From Blasia pusilla (Eukaryota): DNA of 64,000 bases. Shown piece after piece: positions 1 to 54,150 of the stretch. Where the stretch lies: NCBI GenBank assembly GCA_050084515.1, contig CM114271.1:37882001-37946000 (forward strand), given 5' to 3'. The notes under the pieces are model-generated. The model made no database searches and was not told where the DNA came from. It saw only the letters and a program-made list of their open reading frames with translations. A program made the position numbers and the translations under genes. How positions within the stretch are numbered: the stretch's first letter is position 1; every line of letters begins with the position of its first letter.

Positions 1-658
1 ATGGAGGGAATAAATGAAATATATGGGGGAGTTTGGTAAGAATGGGAAGGGGGCTGGTATTTTGGCAGGAGAGAGTAAGAGAGGAGAGGAAGAGAGAAAG
101 AGAGGAGAGTCTCTCTTAAAAAAAAAAGGGAGAGTCCGCCTCCTCTCTTCTAAAATTTCATTTGTTTCTTTATAAGTTTTTCTCTTTGAAATGCTAAAAA
201 ACTTTAGAAGAGAGTAACAAGTGGACTAGATTGGGTCATAAACTAACCTCGTTTTTCCAGGCTTCAATCCTAAACTAGACACACCAAGACCAAGTAAGCC
301 GTGGTCTGTATATACTACTTACATCACTCTATATGCTAGCCAAGACTTTCACTACTAATAGATGGGATTTATTTTCTCCTAGGACATTCTTGGAGATTGA
401 CAAACACGATAGCAAATTTGGTGAGTTTATTAGAAAAGGGATGGGTTTGAATATTTCCAATTATGACTCAGACTTCTCTGAGGCCACGAATCAGTCGTCT
501 ATGTTGGCTGAGCAATGGGTATATGGAGTGTCTATGATGGTGATGGGTGTTTGGAAAGTTTAGGGTTTAGCGTTTAAACACATCAGTCTGAGGTAAAGAA
601 AGCGATCCTTAAGGCCTACATGGAAGGACTACGAGGAAAATAAAGGCAATCAACCTTT

Positions 659-1323
659 CATCTTGTCGGAATCCGACAGGTTGGTAGACGTCAAGATTCC
701 ATAAAATCTAATGACGAAACAAGTGGAGAGAATGAAATGAAGGTAATGCATCATCCTTCCATGCAACCTGTCGGAATCCGACAGGTTTAGATGCTGATTG
801 CTCCCATTTTACTCTAAGTCCTTCCTTGTAGATCTGTGTCCTCTCTTCATGCAACTTGTCGGACTCTGATAGGTTGCATGATAGATGAAGTTTGAATCTA
901 AGAAGAACAACAGGAATGAAGCCTCCCAACCTGAGGCATGCCAACCTGTGAGAATGCAATAGGTTTCAGAAAATAACGCCTGAGTGAGGAATGGTTTGAA
1001 GGAAATGGGGGAACAAGGCGAGGGTCCACAAGCCAGCCAGAATGCCTGAAAGGATTGTGGTGGCACAAGAAAAGAAAAATTAGTCAAGTAGACAACCTGT
1101 CGAGATCCAACCGGGTGGAGAACGTTAAATTGGGAAAATGCAGCAGCCAATCAATTTGACATGCAACCTGTCTGAATCCGACAGGTTTCCTGAATGGATC
1201 ATAGAGAAAGAGGTTTAAAAAAATATGAGCATCCCGTAAGCAATAAATCCCACAACTTGTCGGAATCCAATAGGTTGCAAGCATGGTCTTTGGTTTGCAA
1301 CCCTGTTTAACTCGACGGGTTGC
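659..1323. repeat. Array of 8 imperfect ~25-bp palindromes (consensus CAACCTGTCGGAATCCGACAGGTTG) with unique spacers
   Basis: Copies start at about 659, 764, 852, 942, 1093, 1164, 1253 and 1298. The consensus is self-complementary around its central base. The spacers look unrelated to each other. Confidence 0.85.
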
Positions 1324-1826
1324 TCAATGAAGACCGTTCAACATAGAGGAATCGCAACCGAGACACACAAGTACCACTACTTAGAAGACACATCAAGAAC
1401 ATTAATATCCTTAAAAAAAATGGAAGTCCTTTATTATATCCTAGGGAAACTCGGAAATTTACATTTGTTCATAGAATCCAACAACTCTAGTCTATGATTT
1501 CCTTAGCCTTGTCATCTCAAATTTACTCCTAACTCTCCTTGGTTCCTGTACAAGAGGAATGTCTTGGGATACTAGTGGCTCATCTGGCCGATTGTAGATG
1601 GGGATTGAGAATGTAGGAGAAGTTGATAGCCTTGCCTCCCCCCCCTAGGTACACCATATCGGTCCCATGTGTGATTTTAAGAGTCCCAACGCCTTCCCCG
1701 TAAAAACATCTTGTATGCTCCGCAAGGTGACATCTATCCACTATCAATATGTACTTCATCACTTGAAACCACCAAATCCCTATTCCAAAACACTTGAATC
1801 AATTGAACCCGATAAATGCAGTGAAC

Positions 1827-2289
1827 TCACTCATCATCTTCTGAGAGCTCCTCCAAAATGATTGCCGGCCTTGCCCTGCCGATTTTTGGAATGACAGGAA
1901 GGGAAGATGGCGTCACTACCAATGGGTCTACTGTTGGTTGGAGTAGTTGCCTTTTGAGGTGAGTTGTAGACTCCCACAAGCCTTTCGTAATCCACCTTTG
2001 CCTCCTTGCAAAGGTCGAAAAGTTCCGTTCTTCCTTCAATGGAGAGAATGTTTCTGCCACTCTACCATGCACCTCTGATACTCGCCCTTGATAAACCAAC
2101 CAAGTCCAAGACCAAATCACATGTCCTCGAGCATAGCTCAATGAGGGTCTGCATCAGGGCAGTTGACTTATCCCTTCCTCCAAGTAAAGGCGTGCCTTCA
2201 ATCATAAAGAGTCCTTGGGGGGAATTGTAAAGGTTATCCAATGTGATCCAATCCAAGCATGGATCAACTGGATCGGATATTTGAAACAC
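1827..2289 (-). pseudogene. Decayed exon resembling the C-terminal SAM-binding half of a beta-class N4-cytosine/N6-adenine DNA methyltransferase
   Basis: Reading through the TAG at 2062-2064 gives GRDKSTALMQTLIELCSRTCDLVLDLVGLSRASIRGAW*SGRNILSIEGRTELFDLCKEA. This follows the spacing of K-x3-L-x3-LI-x3-S-x2-GDxVLDPFxGSGTT-x2-AA-x3-GR-x2-IGxE. An AG acceptor lies at 2291-2290 on the minus strand. An acidic tail (LEELSEDDE*) in a shifted frame ends at 1827. Confidence 0.6.
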
Positions 2290-2385
2290 CTAAAACATGT
2301 GCTCAGGTCTCACAAATCAGTAGACATGGGAGTGCTCCATCTGTCCACAAGGCAAGAGCAAAAAATGGTTAGCTTTAAGGTGGAA

Positions 2386-4292
2386 TTTTAAGTTATCATA
2401 TTTCTCATTTTCAAAATTAAAGTAGAATTTGAAGAAAAATTATTACATACCATTTCTCAATTAAAATTTAAATAAAACTTATTCCTTCTCCCAAAATTCC
2501 ATCCTCCAATTAAATTGAAACAATATGTATTCCTTCTCCATCAACATTCATTTTCCCTTCCCTTGAAGTATGAATTAAGGGACAAAATTGTAAATATTTT
2601 ACTATTTTCCAAAACTTTCTCATTGTTTTGTGTGATTAATCACCCATTCTACCATAAACTAGTTACCTACAGATATTTATACAAATTATTAGAAAAAAAA
2701 TTTGAATTTCTTTACATATAATATTAGGCCTATAATTTTCTATTTCTATGAGGGTGTTATGATAGAAAAAATATTTTTTGTAATTATCATTTGTACTTTA
2801 TATCAATTGAGATAAATTTGGTTTTTAGAAAACCATATTTGATTGTAATGTGGTTATTAGAGAAATATAAAATTATTATAATAAATAAATAATCATTAAT
2901 TATAAATTAATTAATAAATGTGTGTGATTTAAAGTTGAATTCCTCCGAGGATAACTTAGTAGAATGAAATCAAAAAGAGGTCGGGAAAATTCTTCCTGTT
3001 TGTGTAAAAAAATTGGAAAATTACGGAAAATAAAAAAGATTTCCCAACACTGCCGGCTCCATTACCGCGAAAAATACTACCCGAACCATGTTTCTGCCTT
3101 ATGGTCTAGAGACAGGACTTTAGAGAGATGTGTCTTAATGTCCTACCTTTTGTTTGACATCGTGAACCCGATTTGTGCTTATGAAGCAAGGAAACCAAAT
3201 TCATTAGTAAGATACACGGGAAATAAAGAAAAATTTAAGAACCCGCAAAAGGAAAAGGGTATAACCCGTGAAGGGAAAGGACACACAAATTTTTCTTGTT
3301 TCACTTGGGTTGTGAAACCTTTCCTAACCCAATCAAGGAAACACTCTGCTAGAGTAATAATAAGATAGATTATTGTAATAGATAATGATGATTTCGGTCG
3401 GCCAAGACATGAGACCATAAGCTCTCGTGGCCTGGCCGACTGAATGGTGCCCAAAGATGTAGATTTGTAGGCCTCTCGATCGGGAGTGACGCGGGAGTAA
3501 ACGAAACCAACCTATGTCCTGTAGTTTCCAATAACCAGAAGTCTACTTTCCGCACTTGAGTCCGTCTGAGGCCTCGAAGTCACTTCTGACCAGATCGCCC
3601 TCTTGTTTTCTCTTGGGGACGCATATCTTAGTGATAGGGATTGGTTCTTTTTTTTCGAGGGAGCAAGGTCTTCAATTTTCACAAACGTGAAGAGGTTCCC
3701 GACCTCTTTATAGTGGATTCTACTAAGTTATCATGGGTGGTTAAAAATTAAGACCCACACACATTTATACAAATCAAATTTATAATTCAAAATTACTTTA
3801 TTCCATTTTTTTATGTTCTAGACCGTAGGTTTACAATGCAAATATGGTTTTCTAAAAAAAAATTATCTCAATTGAATGGTGTAGAGACATTTAAAAAATA
3901 TTTTCCCCATGATGAGAAACCCTCATAGAAATAGAAAATTATACGGGTTGCTCTAGACTTATGACGTTAGCCGATGAGCAAGCAATTCACGGGTTTTTCT
4001 CAATAGATATTTGAATAAAAAAGAAAAACAAGTTTATCCTAGAGGGGTGATTAATCACACAAAACAATGTATAGAGTTACAAGAAATCTTACTTTATTTA
4101 CAATTGAGCAATTCATACTTCAAGGGAAGGTTGAAAATGAGATGCTTGATGGAGAAAAAACCAATTTAATTGGAGGATGGAATTTTGGGAGAAGGAATAA
4201 GTTTTATTTAAATTTTAATTGAGAAATGGAATGTAATTGCTAGACAAAATCTCACTTTGTTTTGAGCAAATGGGAAATATGATAACTTAAAA
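2386..4292. repeat. Long inverted repeat with arms ~2386-2965 and ~3717-4292
   Basis: Several colinear reverse-complement blocks are visible. Examples are CCATTTCTCAATTAAAATTTAAATAAAACTTATTCCTTCTCCCAAAATTCCATCCTCCAATTAAATTG (~2450-2517) against ~4162-4229, and GATAACTTAGTAGAAT (2950-2965) against ATTCTACTAAGTTATC (3717-3732). Confidence 0.9.
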
Positions 4293-5268
4293 ATGATTTT
4301 TGAAGTTGTAGAGCAAGCGGTCGTTTTCCAAAATAAAAGAATTTCAATTAAAGAGGGAATGATTTCATTAATCATAGTTAACCAATAATTTAGATAGCAT
4401 ATATATATATTTTTTATAATTAGGGACCCATATGCTTAATTGTAACACAAACTAGGCAAAATCTTTCAATTTTGTTGATTAACCATATTAAATGGATAGA
4501 AATAGATAATGGCAAAGGAATGAATAGGGATTTGAGAGGAATATATCTTAATCAATTATTAATTTATTTAATATTATAATGGATGATTATAAAAATAAGT
4601 AACATGGAATAACTATAATCAATAACCAGAAATTTAGAATTTTACTTCAATTTGATGAAAAGAAAAGAAATTTTCATGGAGAAGGGGGATTTCGTTGAAA
4701 GTTTAGGGAAGGATGATTATTTAGGGATTGGGATATTGTTTAAATTTGAATGGAGGATTGTAATTACCAAGAAGAGTGAAATATTATCATTCTTATAAGA
4801 TTTTAAAAGATAGAATTTATTTTTGAAATTAAAAATTAATAACATGATCATTTAAAAATAAATCATATTAATCCACCCGTTATATTTTGGGAAAATAAAA
4901 TGAATTAAAAATGATTCAATTAATTAAAATTTAAAAAAAATTTGATTAATGAAAAAAAATTTTAAGATGAAAAATAATTATTGTTTGAGCTTGTATGGAA
5001 GAATGAGATTATTCAAGGGAGATGGTTATTATTGAAAGATGAAAATTTTCTTACTCTTTTAAAATTTAAAAAAAAAAGAATATTTAAAATTTAAAATTAT
5101 ATCCAATTTCAAAATTTGAACATAGTCCAAAACTCTTATTGAAAATTATTTTAAGGTCCTACTGCCAAGCGACAATTTGAGAACAAGAAAATTTTTGTTT
5201 AATTGAAAAACAATTGAACTTGAATTTTCTGGAATATATATTGTTTCCTCGGATCACGGGGTCTTACT
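3311..5268 (-). mobile_element. Probable solo or partial LTR (AT-rich), antisense orientation
   Basis: The minus strand starts GTAAGACCCCG, resembling the common TGTAAGACCCC LTR start, and ends TTTCACA at 3311. A TATA-like CTATAAAGAG lies on the minus strand near 3704-3713. No TSD is recognisable. Confidence 0.4.
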
Positions 5269-5512
5269 AGTTATTTTGATGGGAAGAGAAAGTATTATTC
5301 ACACTTTTGTAGAAAATTGAACTTATCTAAAATATTAAAAAAAACTCAGTTTCGTAAAGTAAAACGTTTTTGAGCATATGCGTTGTGGACGAGAAGCAAG
5401 AACAAGGACCATAATCGCGACACCGTCTATCGAGTTTGGAGCTCGAGACACATATATATCATCCAACGCTGCCAGGTCAAAACTGATCACCTTCGAGAAT
5501 AACTTATCCTTG

Positions 5513-5865
5513 CGATCCATGACGGAGCTTCGCAAAAAAAACCAGAGCACAAGACTAAAAGCTGTTTGGGCATCTGATGGCCGAATCAATCATCTCAACG
5601 GTACACCCGATTTCACTCGGTTATACTAGCTAGCTCCGGTTACCACAGCACTCAATCTCACGGACTCTCATTCTTCATCTGTAACCGGATCGATCCATGA
5701 CGGAGCTTCGAAAAAAAACAGAGCACTAGACTAAAAACTGTGTGGGCATCTGATGGCCGAATCAATCATCTCAACGGTACACCCGATTTCACTCGGTTAT
5801 ACTAGCTAGCTCCGGTTACCATAGCACTCAATCTCATGGACTCTCATTCTTCATCTGTAACCGGA
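5513..5865 (+). repeat. Tandem duplication with a ~178-bp unit (5513-5689, 5691-5865)
   Basis: Two near-identical copies begin CGATCCATGACGGAGCTTCG and end CATCTGTAACCGGA. Confidence 0.95.
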
Positions 5866-6382
5866 CTCCTTTCGATAATTGATGTTTGATGTCGATAAAT
5901 TTAAATGACGACTTAAGTATTCGGTAGCCAGGGCAACTCGAAAGCATCAAGCACTGTAAACGTACTCTTTCAAATCTTCATGCATAGAAGGGATCAGAAC
6001 ACATGAGCCCTTCAAAATCGTACATCCTGCCGTTCCGAAATGACAGCACAAGGGCATGGCAGATTAGAGCTCGCGCCAGAACTGAGAAAGTGTGTGCTGG
6101 GAACAAATGAGAAAATGGATAGTGGCGTGCACCTCCGTGCAGGCTAACTAAACCCGGTTGAATCAAGCAGCACCTTACCACTAGCACGTATAAAAATGGA
6201 AGGCTCCGATCCAGCTCGACACTGTTATTCTGTTACTACACTTACAACGTCACACCGATAATTGATGCTGGTGGTGACGATCAATCATAAGGAGGGTCTT
6301 GAGCTCGATCTTCAGTGAAACAAGCAAGCAGAATCGATTGGTATTCGATGGGGATTAATACTGTGCATATCGTTGACTTCAT

Positions 6383-7329
6383 CTAGGCGCTGTTCTTGAT
6401 ATATCCTTCGACTGCCTTGAACAAATTTGTGACTGCTCCCTTCGCTTGTTCGACGACGCCAGGAATGGCGTTTTCTGAGCCGCCCTCGTACTCGGTGGTG
6501 ACGTGCACCTTGCACTTGTCATCGCCGACCGCGCTGATGGTCATACTGGTAACCCACTTGGTGAAGCCCACGCCCTCACTGAGATGTCCTCCCTCGATCT
6601 CTTGGGTGGTGATTTTAGCATCACCTTCGAGGTCCAGGCCGATGAGCTTCTCCTTGACGAACGCGCCGGCGGGCGCCACTGGAAAATGTAAACGGAGTTG
6701 GTGTGAGAGACCATCATGAATTTCAGGTGGCCATGGCTACTTGTACTAAGTCGATCACGGATACATCCCACATTTGAACGTTATGTAAAATTTTCCTAAA
6801 GGTTGAGTTTTGAAATTGACTGACTCATTCTATCGACCTGAATGAGTTTAACCGCATGCGTCAAACTGGAGCTAAGCGCAGGGGTTCATACATTCATTGT
6901 TTCCGGTGATATTCACACCAGGAAGGCCAGTAGCAAAGCGCGCCGAATCTTATTATAGCTAGATTTAACTAGAACTGTACATCTGGAATCGGTTCCATCG
7001 ATCTCTTCGAATTCATCAATACGTTCAAGCCAAAGTTGAAGTACGAGCTGCGAAATGGGACCGGTAAAACCGAGCGTACTCACATGCCTTCGGTAATCAA
7101 ATGCAACAATGTAGAGCCAACAAACATCTCACTGGGATACAGCATGTGTGAGCTTACCGAAGTTGATGATTCGCACCGAGCCTACGTGTCCTTCCACACC
7201 CTCGATTTCCTCCATGCTGCTAATGACCTCTGGTAAGAGCTTGGGGAACAGCGTGTTTTGCTCCTTCAAAGCTCCCCACAGGGCGCTCACAGGCACGGCC
7301 AACTCGACAACAGACTCGAAGGAACCCAT
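6383..7329 (-). CDS. Bet v 1/PR-10/MLP-like (SRPBCC) protein, 155 aa; exons 7329-7158 and 6678-6383
   Basis: Exon 1 MGSFESVVELAVPVSALW...EGVEGHVGSVRIINF joins exon 2 APAGAFVKEK...EIEGGHL...LFKAVEGYIKNSA across a phase-1 GT-AG intron (7157-6679). The spliced length is 468 nt, in frame, with no internal stops. The Gly-rich loop, EGG motif and C-terminal helix match the family. Confidence 0.92.
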
Positions 7330-7494
7330 TTCCGGTCGGGTGCTGAATCTCGGCACTGATGCGATGGACTCTGGAGACGACACTCTCGAGATGAAGATGT
7401 AGGTACGGGATGCAAGAGCAAATCGAGTGATGGCGAAATTGTGAGAGAGTACTGGTTAGCGATGAAGCTTGCGAACTGAGATCGCGCGAGCTCC

Positions 7495-7501
7495 TTATAT
7501 A
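7495..7501 (-). promoter_or_regulatory. TATA box of the minus-strand PR-10-like gene
   Basis: TATATAA on the minus strand ~165 bp upstream of the ATG. The flanking sequence CTCTGTTCAGTATATAAG is conserved in the paralog promoter. Confidence 0.75.
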
Positions 7502-8239
7502 CTGAACAGAGCAATGTGAGGCTGCTCTGTGGTTGCTGCCATCCGCCCGTACTCGGGTGCTGAATCATGCCTCCCAGTGGAGGCCGGGATGGCCGAGAAA
7601 GGGTTCCCCACCTCCACGGCCTCCACGGTCAAATGACGACGAAGTCCAAAGTTGCTGTTCTAAAGGTCGTCCCGCTCTGACCCGTCCGACGTAGCAAGCG
7701 TCTTCTCGAACTTCCATTATGGGCGCGGCTCGGATAAATCGGTCACTAGAATAGGCGTTTTCACCGGCCGAAAGACAAGTGAACATTACGCTTTTACGCC
7801 GGTTCCATCCGCTTTTAGCCTCTGTTGACTCGTTTGAGGACAGAGAAAGGACGACCTCACCGGCGTTTAGCATGCAGCCCGCGGTAGGATACGTTAAATT
7901 CGTATAGAATCGCGTTGAGACGGTCGGTCAGTGGAAACTCGTTAGTGTAAATATTGATAATGGACTGCCTTCGAGGGTTGTTCGTGCGTGAGTCATGAAG
8001 CGGATCACGGGAGTCAGATTAAAGCTAATGCAAGTTACAGCGAAGACCTTTCTAGGGACAAGGGGCATGCTAACTCGGACCGATGCGACACGTTGCCCCG
8101 TTGCAAGTCCTCAAGAGCACATGCCTAGCAAGACTTCGTCGGCAGGGCTGGGAAGCATTTCTGGTCGTTTGATCTAGACCAATGCATGGATGGCCTTTTT
8201 CCCGTGCTAGGCACCAGCTGAGGAGCGTCCTCTGTTCAG

Positions 8240-8246
8240 TATATAA
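8240..8246 (+). promoter_or_regulatory. TATA box of the plus-strand PR-10-like gene
   Basis: TATATAA ~145 bp upstream of the ATG at 8390, homologous to the box at 7495-7501. Confidence 0.75.
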
Positions 8247-8389
8247 GAGGCTCGCGCAGTCTCAGTTTGCAGGCATTCATCGCCAACCATTAAAGTCTCG
8301 CAATCAATCGATCTGCTCGTGCATCCAACTTTAGATCTCCGTCTAGATCATTTAGTCCATTCCATCAGGGTCGAGATTCAGCACCGGAA

Positions 8390-9162
8390 ATGGGTTCCTT
8401 CGAGTCTGCTGTGGAGTTGGCCGTGCCTGTGAGCGCCCTGTGGGCGGCTTTGAAGGAGCAAAACACGCTGTTCCCCAAGCTCTTACCAGAGGTCATTAGC
8501 AGCGTTGAGGAAATCGAGGGTGTGGAAGGACACGTCGGCTCCGTCCGACTCATCAAGTTTGGTAAGATCACGAAAGAACATGTCAGGCTCAAGAAGTCTA
8601 TGCACACAGTGTTGATGAGTAAATCACGGTCCGTTTTATTGGTCCCATTTAGCAGTCTGTATATAAAGAGGGGGTTTAAATTACGGTCTTGATCGATGGG
8701 GTTCAGTCAATTGCCAGACTTTTGGATAACGTTCAACGAGAGTGAGATCTCGGATGAATGCGTGATCGATGTTGCAATTAATCGCGATGAACGCCTAGTA
8801 TCAATAGGCATGGCCACCTGAAATTGAATGATCGGTTCTCACACCAACACCGTCCACACTTTCCAGTGGCTCCCGCGGGCGCGTTCGTCAAGGAGAAGCT
8901 CATCGGCCTGGACCTCGAAGGTGATTCTAAAATCACCACTCAAGAGATCGAGGGAGGACATCTCAGCGAGGGCGTGGGCTTCACCAAGTGGGTTACCATC
9001 ATGACCATCAGCGCCGTCGGCGATGACAAGTGCAAGGTGCACGTCACCACCGAGTACGAGGGCGGCTTAGAAAACGCCATTCCTGGCGTCGTCGAACAAG
9101 CGCAGGGAGCAGTCACACATTTGTTCAAGGCAATTGAAGATTATATCAAGAACAGCGCGTAG
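8390..9162 (+). CDS. Bet v 1/PR-10/MLP-like (SRPBCC) protein, 155 aa; exons 8390-8561 and 8867-9162
   Basis: Donor G|GTAAG at 8562 and acceptor TTCCAG| at 8866 give 468 nt in frame. The protein differs from the minus-strand paralog at 12 positions. Confidence 0.92.
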
Positions 9163-9808
9163 ATGAATTCAACGTTGTGCGAGGATTGGACCCAGGGAAT
9201 CAGAATTGATTCCGCTTGCATGTTGCCTTCAATTCTTTTATGGTTGATCGTCATCAATTAGCATTGTAGCTAATTGTAGACGAGAAACAGAATAACACTC
9301 TTGAGCTCGAGGTTTCCGTGTGTGTGCTAGTGGTAGCTAGCCCTGGTTCAACCAAGTTTAGTCGAGTTGGATCTACAATCCTCGGGGGTGCCGTTCGGTG
9401 ATGAGTTCCTGGCAAAGAGTTTTTATTCCAACTAGCTCCGGAGCTATGGCTAGCCTGTGCTGGCATCACGGAACCGCAGGATGTATGATTTTGGAGGGTT
9501 TATGAGTTTTGATCCTTTCTATGAATGAAAATTTGAGAGACTTTACGGCACTTCTTAGTTTATTGTGTTCTCACAGCGGATTCCTATTATCAAGAGTGTC
9601 TTGAAACGCACATATGTAAGAAACTCGCTGAATTCTCGCAACCTGGCAAATGTGCATAAACATTAAGGAGTGATTACTGAATGGATACATCATGGCTAGA
9701 GGCGTCTCCCACGGCCTGAGCGAGTTAAGCTTGTCTTCCGCTTCACGAGCGTACACTGGCTTCGGCAGGTCAGGCAATCTGCAATTATATTACGATGGCA
9801 TACGACAG

Positions 9809-12800
9809 TGTTGGAATGTGTAAACGGCAACAAGCCGCGCTGCACATTAAACAAAAACGCTTCGTAAACGAGTTAGCTCCAATCAAACAGCATGCAAAAC
9901 AGTTTATAAACATGACTTAGGTCATGTATAAAACTCATGGATGTGACAATGAATTCAGCTCAGCAGAATTGCCGGTAGAGAGAATAGGACATCCGAGTGA
10001 GATTGGTACTCATATATAGAGAGAATAGGACAGGCATAACTCTGTACCCTTATGACAGGTACTCATATAAAGTGAAAATGGGATAGAACTCTGGATAGAA
10101 ACATGCAAGTGAAGAGAAGTGTGTACCTTGTTTGTACCTTATTTTTCTTTTTTCACAGGGACAAATATCAAGCTGAAAGAAGAGGAAGAAGACTAGCAAT
10201 CAGAAGTCGATCATATGCAGACAAGGAAGACCAGCAAGATCGAAGCGAGCCTTATCAAGATCAAAGATGACGAGCCTTATCGACAACATATTGAGTGAGA
10301 GCCACAAGCTCGATGATAGCAATTACGGCACTTGGCGATACAGGATGAAGGCCATTCTGATGGCATCTGATCTTTACAATATAGTTGATGGCAGAGAAGA
10401 GAAGACCTCGAATATGGATGCTCGAGCCATGAAAGACTTCGAGAAGAAGAGATCGAAAGGCCCTTGGAATTCTGATGATGTCAACGAGAGATTCTCAAAT
10501 CCCTCATTTGAAACATGCAGAGACCTCCAAGGAAGCTTGGACTACACTTGAAGTGGTTCATGCTAGCACAAGCATGACCAGAAAACTGGCATTGCAGAGT
10601 CGAATTTACTCAATGAAGATGAGATCGACCTCGACTATATATTCACACCTCAGCGTTATGAAAGAGCTAAGAGATGATTTGGCAGAAGTTAAGGTCTTAA
10701 TTGATGATGAAACCATGGGACCACTATGATGAATAGTGTGACCCAAGACTCCTACGGGGACTTCATAAACTCTCTAGCCGTGAGAGAAAAGACGCCTACT
10801 TTTTCTGAACTATGCACACTCCTACTTGACGAAGAAAGGAGACGCAACGACCTTGCTGCCCAAGAAGGACAAAAATCGGGACTTAGCACTCTATTCAGCC
10901 AGAAGAAGGGAACATTCTCTCGTCAATATGAAGAAAGGCGATCACAAGAGTGCAACACATCCGGACCGAAGGCCCAAACCTTCCGCACCACCGAGAAAAA
11001 GTTCAATGGTAAGACCTATAGCACTACCAGCAAGAAGGAGTGCACAATATGCGGTAAGATTGGCCATGACTCCAATCAATGTCAGTACAGGAATGATCCC
11101 CACAATCGATCAATGAGACCACAAGAAAAGCAACGAAGCTTCCTCGTCGAGAATGGGAGAACCAATGGAGCACTCACACCATAAAGTGAAGATGATGCAC
11201 CAGGACTTATCTCGGCATTGGTTATCACAAACCAAGTGGACAAGTGGTTCATTGATAGCGGCGCCAGCAACCACATGATAAAAAATAAAGGTTGGTTCAC
11301 ATCTTACAAACCTTTGATGAATGGACCTGAAGTATCAATGGGAGATGGCTCCATTCACTTTGCGATTGGGGAAGGAGATGTGCAAGTGACATTGCCCTAG
11401 GGTGAAGATTATACAATCAAGGATGTGTGGCATATTCCAGCTTTAACACACAACCTTATCTCCATCGGCCAGATCACCAAAAGAGAGAATATGAAGGTTG
11501 TTTTTGATTCCAAAGGATGGGAGTTCTTACGAGAGGCCGACAATTCTGTCGCTGCCCAAGGGGTAAGGTATGGACGACTATATAAATTTCTTAGCAAGCC
11601 GAGCCCTCAACTATTTGCAAGATCTTCAAACCAACTACAAGTTTGGCATGAAAGACTTGGGCACTTTAACACGAAGGGCCTCAAGTTGTTAAGCAAAGAC
11701 AATATGGTTGGAGGGTTACCTAAATTAAGTGGAGAAATATCCACTTGTGACACTTGCTTACGAGGCAAGCAATCGAGGCAAAATTTTGACAAACATATCC
11801 TCTCAAGGGCTCCAACTCCCCTCCATCTAGTCCACATCGACCTTGGAGGACCAATTCAAACGGCTTCACTATCAGGGGCAAGGTACTACATGCTATTAGT
11901 TGATGACCATTCAAGATTTATGTGGGTTTATTTCCTACAACACAAATCCAATGCATTAGGTATACTCAAGAAATTTCTTACATTGATGAGAACTCAATCT
12001 ACTACAGCAGTGGGATCCTTGCATCTACACCTTGGCGAGCCGCCCTCAAAGGTGAAGGTGATACGAACGGATAGGGGAGGTGAATTCATGGGGAAAGCAT
12101 TTGAGACCTTTTGTTGCGATTATGGCATCCGTTATCAACTTACTACGGCCTACACTCCACAACAAAATGGTATTGTTGAGAGGAGGAATCGAACGGTAGT
12201 TGAGATGGCAAGGTGCATGTTGAAGGGGCGAAATCTCCCCAACTATCTCTAGGCAGAGGCCATAAACACGGCCATCTACATCCTCAACAAGTGCCCAACA
12301 AGGGCTTTGGAGGAGAAAACGCCTGAAGAAGTCTTCACTAGCATCAAACCAAATGTCTCACACCTTCGAATCTTTGGGTGTGGAGCTTATGCACATATAC
12401 CAAAAGAATTGAGCAGAAAATTGATGATAAAAGTGTGAGATGCATATTTATTGGCTATGGCACTAGAGAGAAAGCTTACAAGCTCTTCTCCTTGGAGCAC
12501 CACAAGGTGTTTATGAGCCGTGACGTCATATTTGATAAAGACACTCCCCACTCTGAAGAGCATCAATCAAACGACCGAGAGTGGCCTCAAACCTCCACGA
12601 ACAAGGAGTCAGAAAATGAATCTGACAAGGATACACCATCCTCAGCGCCCACAACTCATGTTGATCCACCACCAACACTTGGTGAAAGAGGTCAAGGATT
12701 GGACGATATGAAGTCCACACTTGCGCTACCACCTCCACGAAGGTCAAGTCGACTACACCAACTTCCTTCCAACTTACGAGAGGATTACATTTTACACATG

Positions 12801-14442
12801 GCTTTCTTTCTAAGTCATACACCATTTCAGCAAGCTCCCATTGAGCCTCAATCATTCCAAGAGGCATGCACTAATCCACATTGGCAACATGTAATGACCG
12901 AGGAGTACAATGCCATAGTTGCCAACCGAACATGGGACCTGGTCCGTCTCCCATTAGGGTGGACTGCTATCCCTACAAAGTGGGTTTATAAGTGTAAGTA
13001 CAACGCTGATGGATCGTTGTCCAGGTACAAGGCAAGGCTAGTAGCAAAAGGCTATCGACAACGCCACCCCTATTGCAGATGGATGTTCAAAATGCCTTCT
13101 TAAATGACACTTTGGAAGAAGAGGTATATCTACAGCAACCTCAAGGCTTTACTGCTCCTGGAAATGAAGACCTTGTTTGCAAGATGCGGAAAGCTCTTTA
13201 TGGCCTTATGCAAGCAAATCGAATCTTGAATCAAACCTATGACTCGACTATGTTAAACAAACTTGGATTTGCAAAGAGTAAACACGACCCGAACCTTTAT
13301 CTCAAGATCTCTACTTACGGGATTGTCATTGTGATCTTATATGTGGATGACTTGATCATTACTGGAGATGATGTACAAGAGATACGTGATCTTAAAGAAG
13401 GACTCTCCTCTTCATTCAAAATGAAAGATCTTGGGAGTTTACACTTCTGCCTAGGACTTGAAGTAAAGCGAGGGCCGAAAATGACCTTCTTGACTCAAGA
13501 AAGGCATATAGCTATCTTGCTTCAAACTTTTGGCCTAGAGGACTGCAAATCAACGCCCACTCCGACGAGTACAGAGAGACTTACTTACAATGATCAAGAG
13601 GAGAAGGTGGACTTAAAAGAGTACCAAAAATTGGTGGGGTCACTTATCTATATCACCAACTCCCGACCAGATATTGCATATGCAGTAAGCTAGAGCCAAC
13701 ATATGGCTGATCCCCGAAAGTCTCACCTTATTGCAGCAAAGAGGGTGGCAAGGTATCTTAAGGGTACAAACACATTTGGGCTTGCCTACGATAGAGGAAT
13801 CCAATAGAGGAATCCAACAAGCTCCGATAATCTTGGGATTCTCAGATGTTGATTATGCAGGTTGCCCAATAACTCGCAAATCAACTCAATAACTCGCAAA
13901 TCAACTTCAGGATATTTCTTCTCCTTTGGAAGTGCGGCTGTGAGCTTCTCATCAAAGAAGCAAGCTCCAATTTCTCTACCGTGGATTGAGAAATGCCACA
14001 ACGGATATGGCTTAGAGGACTATTGGCTGAACTTCGATTTACCCAATCTGATCCTAATGTAATCTTGGGAGATAACATTAGTTCTATTTATTTGTTCAGA
14101 AATCCACTCTTCCATTCATGAACGAAACATATCGAATTGCAGCATCACTTTGTTCGAGAAAAGGTATTGAGTGGGGACATCAATGTTGTGTGGGGACATC
14201 TTCACCAAAAGCCTTCCTACCGCTAAGTTTGAAAGATTTAGATCACTTCTTGGTGTTTTAGATTCGGTGTAAAAACATATGTGTTCAAAGAGGATGTTCC
14301 GTTTAGGGAGGATGTTGGAATGTGTAAACAAAGAGGATTTGAGTCTAACATGAGCTGTTAGACTCAAATCAAAACTCTTCACATGGATGTGACCAATGAA
14401 TTCCGCTCATCAGAATTGCTGAAATAAACTTCAGAAATAACA
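9809..14442 (+). mobile_element. Ty1/copia LTR retrotransposon, near full length, degenerate
   Basis: The LTR start TGTTGGAATGTGTAAAC occurs at 9809 and 14313. A polypurine tract (TTAGGGAGGA) directly precedes 14313. A shared LTR block lies at ~9936-9972 and ~14382-14419. Domain order is gag-PR-INT-RT-RH. The right end is approximate, and no PBS or TSD was recognised. Confidence 0.9.
10267..14270 (+). pseudogene. Copia gag-pol polyprotein with stops, frameshifts and an RT deletion
   Basis: Motifs seen: KLDDSNYGTWRYRMKAIL (gag), CTICGKIGHDSNQC (zinc knuckle), WFIDSGASNHM (protease), WHERLGH and IRTDRGGEF...PQQNGIVERRNR (integrase), KWVYK...YKARLVAKGY and LYVDDL (RT), TRKSTSGYFF (RNase H). Confidence 0.93.
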
Positions 14443-50512: not shown

Positions 50513-53500
50513 CTAATCTGATTTTGAGTTATTAGAGTCTGAATCAACGTCTTCTATCATATCGCACACATGGATTATTGGCACATGCTGCATATCCACT
50601 CTAGCAGCTTCCATTTCTGCATCACTTAGGACTCTAGCTCCTAAGGTACTTGCATCTGGTAGATTCCCTTGTTCCATGCATGTGACATGGAAAGTGGGCA
50701 AAGCATTACAAGCTCCATCTAGTGACTCTAAGTTATCAAAATAAACTCTCCGAGCTCTAGCTTCCTTCCTCATTACCACTTTCCATCCTCCACCCTCATC
50801 GGCATCTCCATAAAACACTTGTTGCACTTGTGATGGGAAAACAAATGGCTAGTGATCTAATGGCTCGCATGACCTCAAATTGGCCACCAGAAAACCCTCC
50901 TTATCCAATTTCATGGACCCTACTCTCGAGTCCCAATTTTCTTTAACCCACCGCCCTCACATTCATATTATGGGCTGTTCTAAAATCCCATAATCAAGTA
51001 AGAGAATATCAACTAGCACTCCAACATATGAGTATAAACAATTCTGGTTGGAACTTTTTTCATCAACAAATACAACACATATTCCACTATCATAAGTGGA
51101 GAAGGGTGTCGCACCACTTGGCCCTTCTACCCTGTAGTGGTTTCCGTAGGCTTTCATACTCTTGAATGACAATGCCCTACTATTAGGAGGTATAGCTAAC
51201 AATAGTAGGTGAACAGTAGGATCTTTTGAGTTGTCAATTGCATCCTATGTAATGGCAGGGCGAATCCACTTTTCAAAAGGAATATCTCTCGAACATGACT
51301 CATATTTCCTGTTCAATAACAATGTTAATGGTATTAGTACATTCTTTTATATTTAATGTGTCAATACCAAAATAATATACACTTTGAGAGTCTGAAGCGT
51401 AATTAACATAACTATAATCCTGAAAAGCATATATTGGAGAGTTTTACCTTTGCCAATCAACCATGACCTCTATATTATGCAACACATAATGATGTGCTAA
51501 GTTGATCATTTCTCGCGAAAGTTGAACTGGAGTGCTCGCACCTTCTAGCTCCTCACCAGTAGCCCCCTCTTCCTCCCCATCATCCCACACTTGCGTCCGC
51601 ACGTCTTCAAACCTTTTCATATACTCTGTCACCAACCCTAATGCCTCGTCCTTCACATACCCTTCCGCCATACACCCCTCTGGCCTAGCTTTAGACCGTA
51701 CATATTTCTTCATGTACCCCATATATTGCTCCATTGGAAACATCCACCAACATGCTACTAGCCCACACATGTCCAATTCTTCTACAACATGAATCAACAA
51801 ATGTGTCATCACGTGGAAGAAAGATGGAGGGAAATGCATTTCAAAGAGACAAAGGGTTATGGCAGTCTCTTCAAGGAGTTTGTCGAATAAAGCTGGATCA
51901 TACACCTTTGTACACACCATTCTAAAAATGCCGGATAATCTAATAACCACCATTCTCACATGGTCCTTCAGAAGACTACGGATGCAATAAGGAAGGACTT
52001 GCTGAATGAAGACATGGTAATCATGTGATTTCATATTGCCCAATTTTTTATTAACCACATGCTTGGAGAGTTCTCCACATGTGGTTAATAAAATCACATG
52101 TGGAAATCCAGATGGCACCTTCAAGTTCTGAATCCTTGAAAGGAAAGTGTTCAAGTCATGGTGAGATAGACAATAATCGGAAACTGGTTTAAACAAAACT
52201 TGGGGTCTACTAGGATGGGGTTGCAACCACAAATGGGATCGAATCCCACGGGCCTCCAAATCTCTCCTTACTTTCACAGTATCTTTCACTCCAAATAAGG
52301 TCTTGACTAGATTCTCAATGATATTCTTCTCAACGTGCATTACATCTAACATATGACCTATAAGCAAATTCTGATTGTATTTTCAAGGAAGCATGGAGAT
52401 CTCATGACTTGAACACAATAGCTAATATCCACAATCAAATCAAACAAAAGATATCCTCCTATAGCCACTATTTCATAACATAAAGAATAGATAATATAGA
52501 GAGGAAGTAGGATACTGGCCAGTAAGGCAACGAATATAGTAAACTCAACCTTTTCACCCCATTTCTTTTGTAGGGATCAGTAGGGCCGTCTTCTGGACCC
52601 CACTCTGATCATATGTATGTTTTTTATTTTCCCATCCAATAATCTCTCCGGAAAGTAGTCTAGGCACGCGTGGTCTAAGTTCTGCACTCCCGATGAAATG
52701 AGATCCATACCTACGGGTCCTCCATGGATGGCTCATTGGGAGATATCGACGATGACAACCGTATATGGGCTTGCCACAAGACTTTCAAAAATCAGAATCC
52801 ACTCAAAGCCCACATATAGTACATCCTAGTTTTCCACCGTGGCTCTGCCCAGCTAGAGTTCCGTATGCCGGGTAATCATTTATTGTCCATAGTAAGGTAG
52901 CCCTAAACAAGAAGTTCCAACTTCCGCCTACCTTCCGAACGTCATGAAATTGAACCCTTTTCCACATTTCCTAGAACTCTTCTATTAGAGGAAGCAAGTA
53001 TGTGTCTATGTTTTTTCCATTTACACTCTCCTTTCCTGGTATGATCAAAGAGAGTATCACAAAGAAAAAATTTTTTTTCGGAGCTACGGAGGCAAGTTAT
53101 AATTAACAAGAAGCACGGGCCATGTTGACCACAAACTTGACTTGTTTGAAAATGGATTCACTCCGTCCAAGCTAGCCAAACCTGCAATTCCTCTTCTCCT
53201 TGGCAAAGTCTGGATATAAGTTGTCCATGTGGCGCCATGCCTTGCAATCACCTATATGCCTTACTAAGCCATCCTTGCTCTGATTCAAGGGGGCCCAGGT
53301 TAACAATTCAGACAACATCGTGCATCTAAACATACGTCTCATCCGAGGTATGATAGGAAAATGCCTTAGTATCTTACATGGTACCAACGTTCTACCCACT
53401 TTCCGGAACCTTGATTTCCCACATAATGGACAGATCTCAGCTTCAGCCAAATCACCCCGAATAAAACACATCCAGCCGGACACGCATGGATACTGTTGTA

Positions 53501-54150
53501 ACGTAAGCCTAGTTTACCAATGAGTTTTCCTGCTACATAATAACTCGGTGGCGCCAAGTTCCTTGTTGGTAGGACCAACTTACAAAAGAGTTTCAAAACT
53601 TCATCAATAGCAATATTTGGGACGCCATGGTTTACAAAAGCCAAAAGCCAAAAAAGATAGTAACATGACAAAAGCCAAAAAAGATGTTTTTGTTGTAGGG
53701 AACAAAGGTTTGCAAGCTTCAGCAAGCTCCTCATATTCATCTCCGTGATTGAATAGTGGTTCTTTGTTTGACATTCCCGGTTTTGGTAATTCATCAGATG
53801 GGAGAGATATCTCTTCAATTTCATCCTCGTGTATATGGTCGTATTTCTGGAAAATATCATTGAGCATTAAATGAATATCAATGTGCTTATCTATATCTGC
53901 CATGGAAGATCTCTCCCTTCCATCCACATGGAAGGTGGGGGCTGACTCCACCTTGGCTTATTTTTTCAGCAAGATCATGCATAAGCCACTCCTCATCTAA
54001 AGAGTCCCATCCATCCCTAGATTTTGGCACTCGATAAAGCGCCGAGCGTCCATTTTTTCTTAAATCTGCTTCCACCTTGCCGATGGACAATGTAGACCCA
54101 CCCTTACAGTCATTGCACGGACACTGTAATCTTTTACAGCCCACTAGCTC
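50513..54150 (-). pseudogene. CACTA TnpD-type transposase (Transposase_21/DUF4218/DUF4216-like regions), disrupted
   Basis: Motifs seen: CPCNDC, IHACP, LRHFPIIPRMRRMF, WTINDYPAYG, LDVMHVEKN, MKSHDYH, FPPSFFHVMTHL, ARPEGCMAEGY and QQVFY..GWKVV. Multiple stops and frameshifts are present. Confidence 0.92.

Follow-up and report, generated by a model that had tools for sequence, protein, structure and literature searches.

A probable relic of a beta-class amino-methyltransferase-like gene in repeated DNA of Blasia pusilla

To our knowledge, amino-methyltransferases of the PF01555 type are almost unknown in eukaryotes, and the studies of Marchantia DN4MT1 and of rotifer N4CMT are each said to have opened a new chapter in eukaryotic DNA modification. 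The methylase-like (MT) domain of DIRS elements, a further point of comparison, belongs to a different, Dam-like methylase family. Marchantia DN4MT1a and DN4MT1b are described as horizontally acquired, PF01555-type 4mC methyltransferases of a land plant, bearing a TSPPY motif and encoded by two tandem genes (bioRxiv 10.1101/2021.02.12.428880), while N4CMT of bdelloid rotifers is described as a horizontally acquired 4mC methyltransferase of the PF01555 type (PMC8885841). A search of the literature on PF01555, N6_N4_Mtase and IPR002941 in plants, transposable elements and eukaryotes, and on land-plant 4mC methyltransferases, returned no description of a plant-repeat family of the kind considered here.

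Here we describe a locus in a 64-kb stretch of the Blasia pusilla genome (64,000 nucleotides, hereafter the window), which we consider, with a probability of about 80%, to hold the dead AdoMet-binding part of a beta-class amino-methyltransferase-like gene that has been multiplied within a repeat, homology, death and repetition being taken jointly. Bacterial and phage type II beta-class N6A/N4C methyltransferases, such as the enzyme of Bacteroides phage BT-TP2 and the DpnA-type structures 5hek and 5hfj, have their C-terminal elements in the same order and at the same spacing as the relic; common to both are the strand before the HPTQKP site, the L..LI helix, the D.VLD strand, the position of motif I and the GRN/F..E motif. 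Unlike the bacterial and phage PF01555 enzymes, the relic has no catalytic half, has lost the FxGxG glycines, shows ..DKS in place of HPTQKP and contains an internal stop; it also stands in a eukaryotic, multicopy setting and falls below the Pfam threshold. The relic appears to be of the same enzyme class as DN4MT1 and N4CMT and is likewise found in a eukaryote, a comparison drawn by description only. Whereas those two are described as intact, low-copy, expressed host genes with a TSPPY-type motif and proven activity, the relic is multicopy and degenerate and lacks a catalytic motif. The MT domain of DIRS1-like elements resembles the relic in being DNA-methylase-like and in occurring as many decaying copies, and in DIRS it is carried by a mobile element (PMC3266345). 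In DIRS elements a single pol ORF is reported to encode RT, RNase H and, after them, the MT domain, with a tyrosine recombinase alongside; positions 1-7000, which include the relic, contain neither RT and RNase H nor a recombinase. A DIRS-type origin was considered and rejected, as no RT, RNase H or recombinase occurs in 1-7000 and DIRS elements are reported to be absent from land plants (PMC3266345, PMC9033089).

A preliminary description of this DNA had quoted a minus-strand frame with one internal stop. That frame is present letter for letter at 2289..1834 in the translation of the window. It starts at 2289, right behind ...ttttag (TAG at 2292-2290, followed by GTG...), runs for 75 codons to a TAG at 2064-2062, and continues for 75 more codons to a TGA. 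The lower coordinate that had been given for it, 1827, is part of an overlapping ORF in a different frame (1827..2153), while the relic frame itself ends at 1834. We refer to the read-through translation of 2289..1834, minus strand, with X at the internal stop, as P0001, and to the annotated 224-residue DNA methyltransferase of phage BT-TP2 as P0042. The features of the relic are as follows.

1834..2289, minus strand: methyltransferase-like relic, read-through frame of 151 codons plus the terminal TGA at 1836-1834; the translation matches the quoted string
1972..2241, minus strand: stretch homologous to residues 133-222 of 224 of the phage enzyme (tblastn with P0042; blastp of P0001 against P0042), covering the pre-motif-X strand, the HPTQKP-like site, the helix, motif I and the GRN..E motif
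2014..2265, minus strand: match to the profile of a family of 147-aa plant ORFs, profile positions 35-115 (local hmmsearch, blastp, phmmer)
2080..2106, minus strand: degenerate motif I equivalent DLVGLSRAS (DTFGGSGTT in the phage enzyme), from the alignment with P0042
2062..2064, minus strand: in-frame TAG stop between motif I and the GRN..IE motif, from the translation

Searched alone, P0001 matched no Pfam family at E<=10 and no relevant (methylase) entry of the PDB, and word-indexed protein searches ('longer', 469 candidates; 'near', 14 candidates) returned nothing at E<=0.01. When phage DNA was searched by tblastn (50,697 records, 2.3 Gb), the sole match of P0001 at E<=1 was the BT-TP2 enzyme (E 0.02), itself a PF01555 protein (E 1.2e-30) with a DPPY motif close to the N-terminus. 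Compared directly by blastp, P0001 and P0042 were identical at 29 of 91 positions (32%, E 5e-9), with P0001 aligned onto residues 133-222 of the phage enzyme. The reciprocal search with P0042 against the window (tblastn) gave a single match, at 2241-1972 on the minus strand (E 1.6e-5), the next best having an E value of 0.45. SGRNILSIE and DLVLD of the window align with SGRNFVLME and DLILD of P0042, with the beta-2 acidic residue and the D.VLD strand both present. Plasmid DNA searched with P0001 by tblastn gave 5 records, all at E>=1 and not significant; 2 of these are annotated as site-specific DNA methyltransferase, and 2 unannotated ones are near-identical 6.76-kb plasmids matching one annotated methyltransferase over the same part of P0001. 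Among language-model look-alikes of the unbroken 75-aa window ORF, used as a lead only, the three matches listed all belonged to PF01555 (0.87-0.89).

An exhaustive phmmer search with P0001 against 1.84 billion representative proteins returned 3 at E<=0.001, and no long ORF fusing the domain to another domain. The only non-repeat protein among the 3 was P0003 (E 9e-6), a 147-aa ORF and the sole credible protein relative of P0001 in that library; the two are 39% identical over 83 aa by blastp (E 2e-15). The other two were rejected on inspection of their sequences: P0002 is an artefact produced by 22 repeated stretches of a 25-residue piece in a bacterial repeat protein, and P0004 (E 9.6e-4) is likewise a repeat artefact from a bacterial repeat protein. 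P0003 belongs to a family, with 38 relatives at E<=0.001 out of 48 candidates (65-100% identity). A single source class accounts for all 38 ORFs. Their contigs, no fewer than 36 different ones, measure 13 kb to 1.2 Mb, and the P0003 family is thus itself multicopy in eukaryote-sized assemblies.

P0003 scored 22 bits against PF01555, below the Pfam cut-off of 26.7 bits, and a precomputed PF01555 call was present on only 3 of the 38 members. We aligned 21 family members with P0001; 20 of these 22 sequences matched PF01555 at E<=0.1 (best 4e-6), at profile positions 170-217 of 221, with P0001 among the 2 that failed to match. Against the PDB, the family profile matched the DpnA-type adenine methylases 5hek (E 8e-5) and 5hfj (E 1.2e-4) at residues 169-230 of 240, while CcrM was found at E 0.68, which is not significant. 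Comparison of the family alignment with P0042 by hhalign gave a probability of 90.7% (E 1.3e-6). When the P0003-family profile was run against the six frames of the 64-kb window (hmmsearch), it gave a single match, of 31.3 bits (E 4e-11 for 6 targets). Phage DNA searched by tblastn with another family member, P0005, yielded 104 records at E<=1; the 15 rows listed comprise 12 annotated as DNA methylase or methyltransferase, 2 without annotation and 1 labelled 'unknown'. Language-model look-alikes of P0003, again a lead only, fell into PF01555 clusters in 15 of 30 cases. An AlphaFold2 model of P0003 built on the 22-row alignment was too poor for any inference on the fold (mean pLDDT 43.3, pTM 0.23).

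The family searches, the comparison with the phage enzyme and the language-model look-alikes converge. On these grounds we accept that the relic of the window is, as far as sequence comparison can tell, homologous to the C-terminal AdoMet-binding part of beta-class N6/N4 amino-methyltransferases; this homology is real but remote. The preliminary description had proposed a homology of just this kind, to the C-terminal part of PF01555 enzymes, and the reciprocal phage-enzyme matches, the family searches against Pfam and the PDB and the hhalign comparison support it. The profile comparison with PF01555 that it had suggested gave a divided answer, with no match for P0001 alone and matches at E<=0.1 for 20 of its 21 aligned relatives; homology is supported, while the window copy itself does not reach the Pfam threshold.

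Within the P0003 family, mean pairwise identity was 74-76% over positions 35-122 (the methylase-like core), 69% over the N-terminal stretch (positions 1-34) and 59% over the tail (positions 123-147). Fewer than 130 residues remain in 22 of the 38 ORFs, and in nearly all members the equivalent of motif I reads A-D-L-S-A-S-T-G-A-S or a close variant. From its sequences, the family therefore looks like a set of copies in decay, descended from a sequence with an already altered cofactor loop. Several features common to the window copy and the P0003 family are absent from P0042, among them D-P..L..TL.N, GTP, E-[LM]-C-S-[KR], an A-S after the loop and a similar tail, and for this reason the two look like members of one plant lineage. 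Scans of metagenome contigs with the family alignment (132 pattern matches) and with the unbroken window ORF (598 pattern matches) contained no relative, nor did a scan of IMG/VR (121 pattern matches). The relatives seen are all short ORFs with a degenerate motif I and without a catalytic half, and no member is known to be a working enzyme; the earlier suggestion of a mobile family carrying its own DNA-modifying enzyme is not supported by them.

The fragment in the window corresponds to only the last ~90 residues of an enzyme of 225-240 residues. In the alignment with P0042, V-G-L-S-R stands opposite F-G-G-S-G, with both FxGxG glycines replaced, by L and R; this AdoMet-binding loop reads S-A-S-T-G in most members of the plant ORF family. 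The HPTQKP site is reduced to ..DKS in the window copy. Residues 1-132 of P0042 found no match in the 64-kb window, and blastn and tblastn searches found no other copy of the relic inside it. A Pfam scan of all frames of 1-7000 gave no meaningful family, its sole row being a proline-rich family at E 0.015. Scanning the six frames of the 64 kb for (D/S/N)PP(Y/F/W) gave 8 matches, which we estimate to be about the number expected by chance. Two upstream matches on the minus strand, NPPF at ~4759 and DPPY at ~6298, were considered as the catalytic motif and set aside as chance occurrences without surrounding similarity; the latter lies just beyond the end of a minus-strand Bet v 1 frame, probably in its 3' untranslated region. 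Given the internal stop, the lost FxGxG glycines and the lack of a catalytic half in the window, the window copy is almost certainly dead and non-functional, to judge from its sequence. The preliminary description had regarded the copy as dead, its motif I (DLVGLSRAS) as divergent and its catalytic half as missing, and these observations bear it out on each point.

We used one DNA run and three RNA runs carrying the same species label, aligned to positions 1-10000 at 85% likeness, to examine the setting of the relic. Summed DNA depth was ~312 in bin 1337-1670, which holds a different and very abundant repeat, ~48 in bin 1671-2004, ~36 in bin 2005-2338, 5.4 in bin 2339-2672 and 0.25-2.8 in the bins spanning 2673-4342. 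The units that can be told apart around the relic are these.

1671..2385, no strand assigned: moderately repeated unit holding the relic, delimited by read depth, by unrelated sequence at both borders and by the 448 reads that run off behind 1670
2386..4292, no strand assigned: AT-rich, non-coding 1.9-kb element bounded by inverted repeats, with arms at 2386-2517 and 4162-4292
1487..1670, no strand assigned: 184-bp piece of a much more abundant, different repeat, abutting the downstream (3') side of the relic, delimited by read run-offs

The relic thus sits in a ~0.7-kb piece of a repeat, presumably dispersed, whose copies at >=85% identity number roughly in the tens, an estimate that is rough, being taken at 85% likeness from 2816 aligned reads of which 2551 fit only partly and lacking a certain single-copy baseline. 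The preliminary description had spoken of a repeated family, with which a DNA depth of ~36-48 at the relic against 0.25-2.8 in nearby low-copy bins agrees. Most reads over the unit diverge at their ends. Other copies, as represented by reads, skip 68-86 bases between 1892 and 1995, a shortening that would leave their tails more similar in length to those of the 147-aa family.

Directly upstream, the relic is adjoined by the 2386..4292 element, which interrupts or truncates it; an inverted-repeat structure cutting the relic off at ~2386 had been noticed before, and the two arms confirm it. These arms are 132 nt long and 99% complementary over the inner 76 nt. Three DNA reads join 2385 to 4329 on opposite strands, and the target-site duplication is ambiguous (TA or TTAA). 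The element resembles a foldback element or a large MITE and is low-copy by read depth. On the other side, the borders of the 1487..1670 repeat are marked by 190 reads running off before 1486, 331 before 1487 and 448 behind 1670, each with a consistent consensus end. Transcripts of copies related to this repeat are minus-strand in sense, at an RNA depth of ~5-6, and all carry letters unlike those of the window.

Farther downstream, 0.4-1 kb from the relic, positions 646-1280 hold an array of ~7 copies of a 26-30-bp palindrome with the core CCTGTCGGAATCCGACAGG, spaced by ~88-105 bp or multiples thereof. Allowing <=3 mismatches, the palindrome gave 7 strand-matches at 4 sites where 0.01 were expected, and it is absent from the rest of the window. 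In appearance the array recalls a short satellite or the repeats found subterminally in DNA transposons, and its DNA read depth is low (4-10).

RNA reads over 1671-2338 had their first mate on the plus strand only, which, by calibration on two oppositely oriented Bet v 1 genes, corresponds to minus-strand RNA, in the sense of the relic frame. In the three RNA runs, depth was 0.8-1.3 over 1671-2004 and 0.1-0.5 over 2005-2338. At position 1955, the letter of the window is found in none of 12 RNA reads and in none of 24 DNA reads. Since the RNA reads carry the variants of other copies, family members are transcribed, though not demonstrably the window copy. There is, then, weak sense-strand transcription of members of the repeat family. 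No splice joint was seen at 2289/2290, where an RNA depth of 0.1-0.5 is too low to speak for or against splicing. Among indexed sequencing runs, no RNA run containing the sequence was listed, and the RNA evidence comes from the three runs above.

We favor the reading that 2289-1834 is the decayed C-terminal portion of a PF01555-type gene, in which the catalytic half comes first, extending from the pre-motif-X region through motifs I to III. Its ancestor may have been acquired from a bacterium, a phage or a virus, and the sequence would since have been multiplied passively, as part or cargo of a mobile element. The only other known members of its plant lineage are the multicopy family of ~147-aa ORFs, and even the best-preserved of these relatives presumably no longer methylate DNA, as motif I is degenerate there too. 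Passive multiplication has to be weighed against the view that the gene was proper to an autonomous mobile element, in which case the relic would come from a truncated copy of an unclassified plant transposon or retroelement family that encodes a beta-class amino-methyltransferase-like protein. An own gene would fit the multicopy state of the unit, in which the non-coding flanks 1671-1833 and 2290-2385 are repeated together with the coding part, as well as the low-level sense transcription of family members; the 147-aa relatives, from another assembly, are also multicopy and decaying, 38 ORFs being spread over at least 36 different contigs and 22 of the 38 ORFs falling short of 130 aa. Precedents have been reported in the MT domain of DIRS1-like elements (PMC3266345) and in DNMTs found inside retrotransposons (PMC12344493). 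We nevertheless regard this view as rather unlikely. Every frame of 1-7000 is free of transposase, RT, RNase H, integrase, recombinase and gag; the repeat unit, which is truncated on both sides in the window, showed neither termini nor a target-site duplication; the exhaustive P0001 search gave no long ORF fusing the domain to anything; and motif I is degenerate in every relative seen. The preliminary description had called the gene transposon-borne and had proposed a check for neighboring gag, RT or transposase genes; that check came out negative over all frames of 1-7000, and the absence of element termini likewise weakens the claim.

A different account starts from a host amino-methyltransferase gained by horizontal transfer, whether DN4MT1-like or not; a fragment of it would have been captured or duplicated, and its last exon alone multiplied. 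The presence of a C-terminal part alone is typical of captured exons, and only the C-terminal ~90-100 residues are ever seen, in the window copy and the 147-aa ORF family alike. Pack-MULE, Helitron or CACTA elements could have served as carriers, with segmental duplication as the alternative; CACTA remains do occur elsewhere in the window (DUF4218, Transposase_21), the palindrome array 0.4-1 kb downstream is like subterminal repeats, and a plant host gene of the class is reported from Marchantia (bioRxiv 10.1101/2021.02.12.428880). The library of 1.84 billion proteins, however, contained no intact host parent gene, and the two plant lineages are 39% identical and both multicopy, so that either two independent captures or a single, very old one would be needed. 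Capture, by any of these carriers or by segmental duplication, is possible, with the odds somewhat against it. We consider descent from an endogenous insertion of a large, giant-virus-like DNA virus to be very unlikely. Such viruses carry many PF01555 methylases, and P0005 weakly matches a Mollyvirus methyltransferase; at E 0.7 this match is not significant, and the better matches of P0005 are to enzymes of tailed phages. The IMG/VR scan held no relative and 1-7000 held no other viral gene, even if chloroviruses are reported to be rich in such enzymes (PMC7248222). Least credible of all is the idea that the motif pattern is mimicked by chance in an open frame of repeat DNA. P0001 alone fails against both Pfam and the PDB, and the pattern was first matched by eye, but independent searches converge on PF01555 and on the same C-terminal register, and both the family profile and P0042 give reciprocal single matches in the window.

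Returning to a relic multiplied within a repeat, a broader reading is that it stems from an old, undescribed land-plant lineage of genes that derive from a beta-class amino-methyltransferase and have a remodelled cofactor loop, a lineage that would have been multiplied by a mobile element in at least two groups of plants, that of the Blasia pusilla genome and that of the source of the 147-aa ORF family (39% identical). We put this forward as a speculation that is unlikely to hold as stated. Should it be true, plants would have in this lineage an equivalent of the enigmatic methylase-like domain known from DIRS elements, and its intact members might keep the catalytic half on upstream exons. 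More generally, if such an enzyme gave rise to a multicopy and transcribed family in plant repeat DNA, plants would seem to have received genes of this kind once more from bacteria, phages or viruses; alternatively, it might mean that a mobile element once carried a DNA-modifying or DNA-binding module. The locus in the window is itself debris, and its value is as a pointer to a family worth a genome-wide look.

Other features were seen in the window, whose DNA around the relic is plant repeat DNA. A Ty1/copia polyprotein is split over several frames at 10711-13693 (zinc knuckle, gag-pre-integrase, rve and RVT_2), and remains of a CACTA-type transposase lie on the minus strand at 51444-53513, with DUF4218 (E 3e-31) and fragments of Transposase_21. 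A 155-nt unit is tandemly duplicated at 5535-5865 (96% identical, 176-nt spacing), between an AT-rich tract and a Bet v 1 gene. Positions 6365-9180 form an inverted duplication, with arms of 353 nt and 189 nt that are 93% complementary, holding two Bet v 1/PR-10-type genes in opposite orientation, both of which are expressed in all three RNA runs. Their intron joints are 6678>7158 on the minus strand, seen in runs X14 and X16 only, and 8560>8866 (GT..AG), seen in all three runs. At 6581-6617, ~930-1320 RNA reads per run match only these 37 bases and run off on both sides; they carry fixed differences at 6596, 6599 and 6604, and their probable source is a strongly expressed Bet v 1 paralog at another place in the genome.
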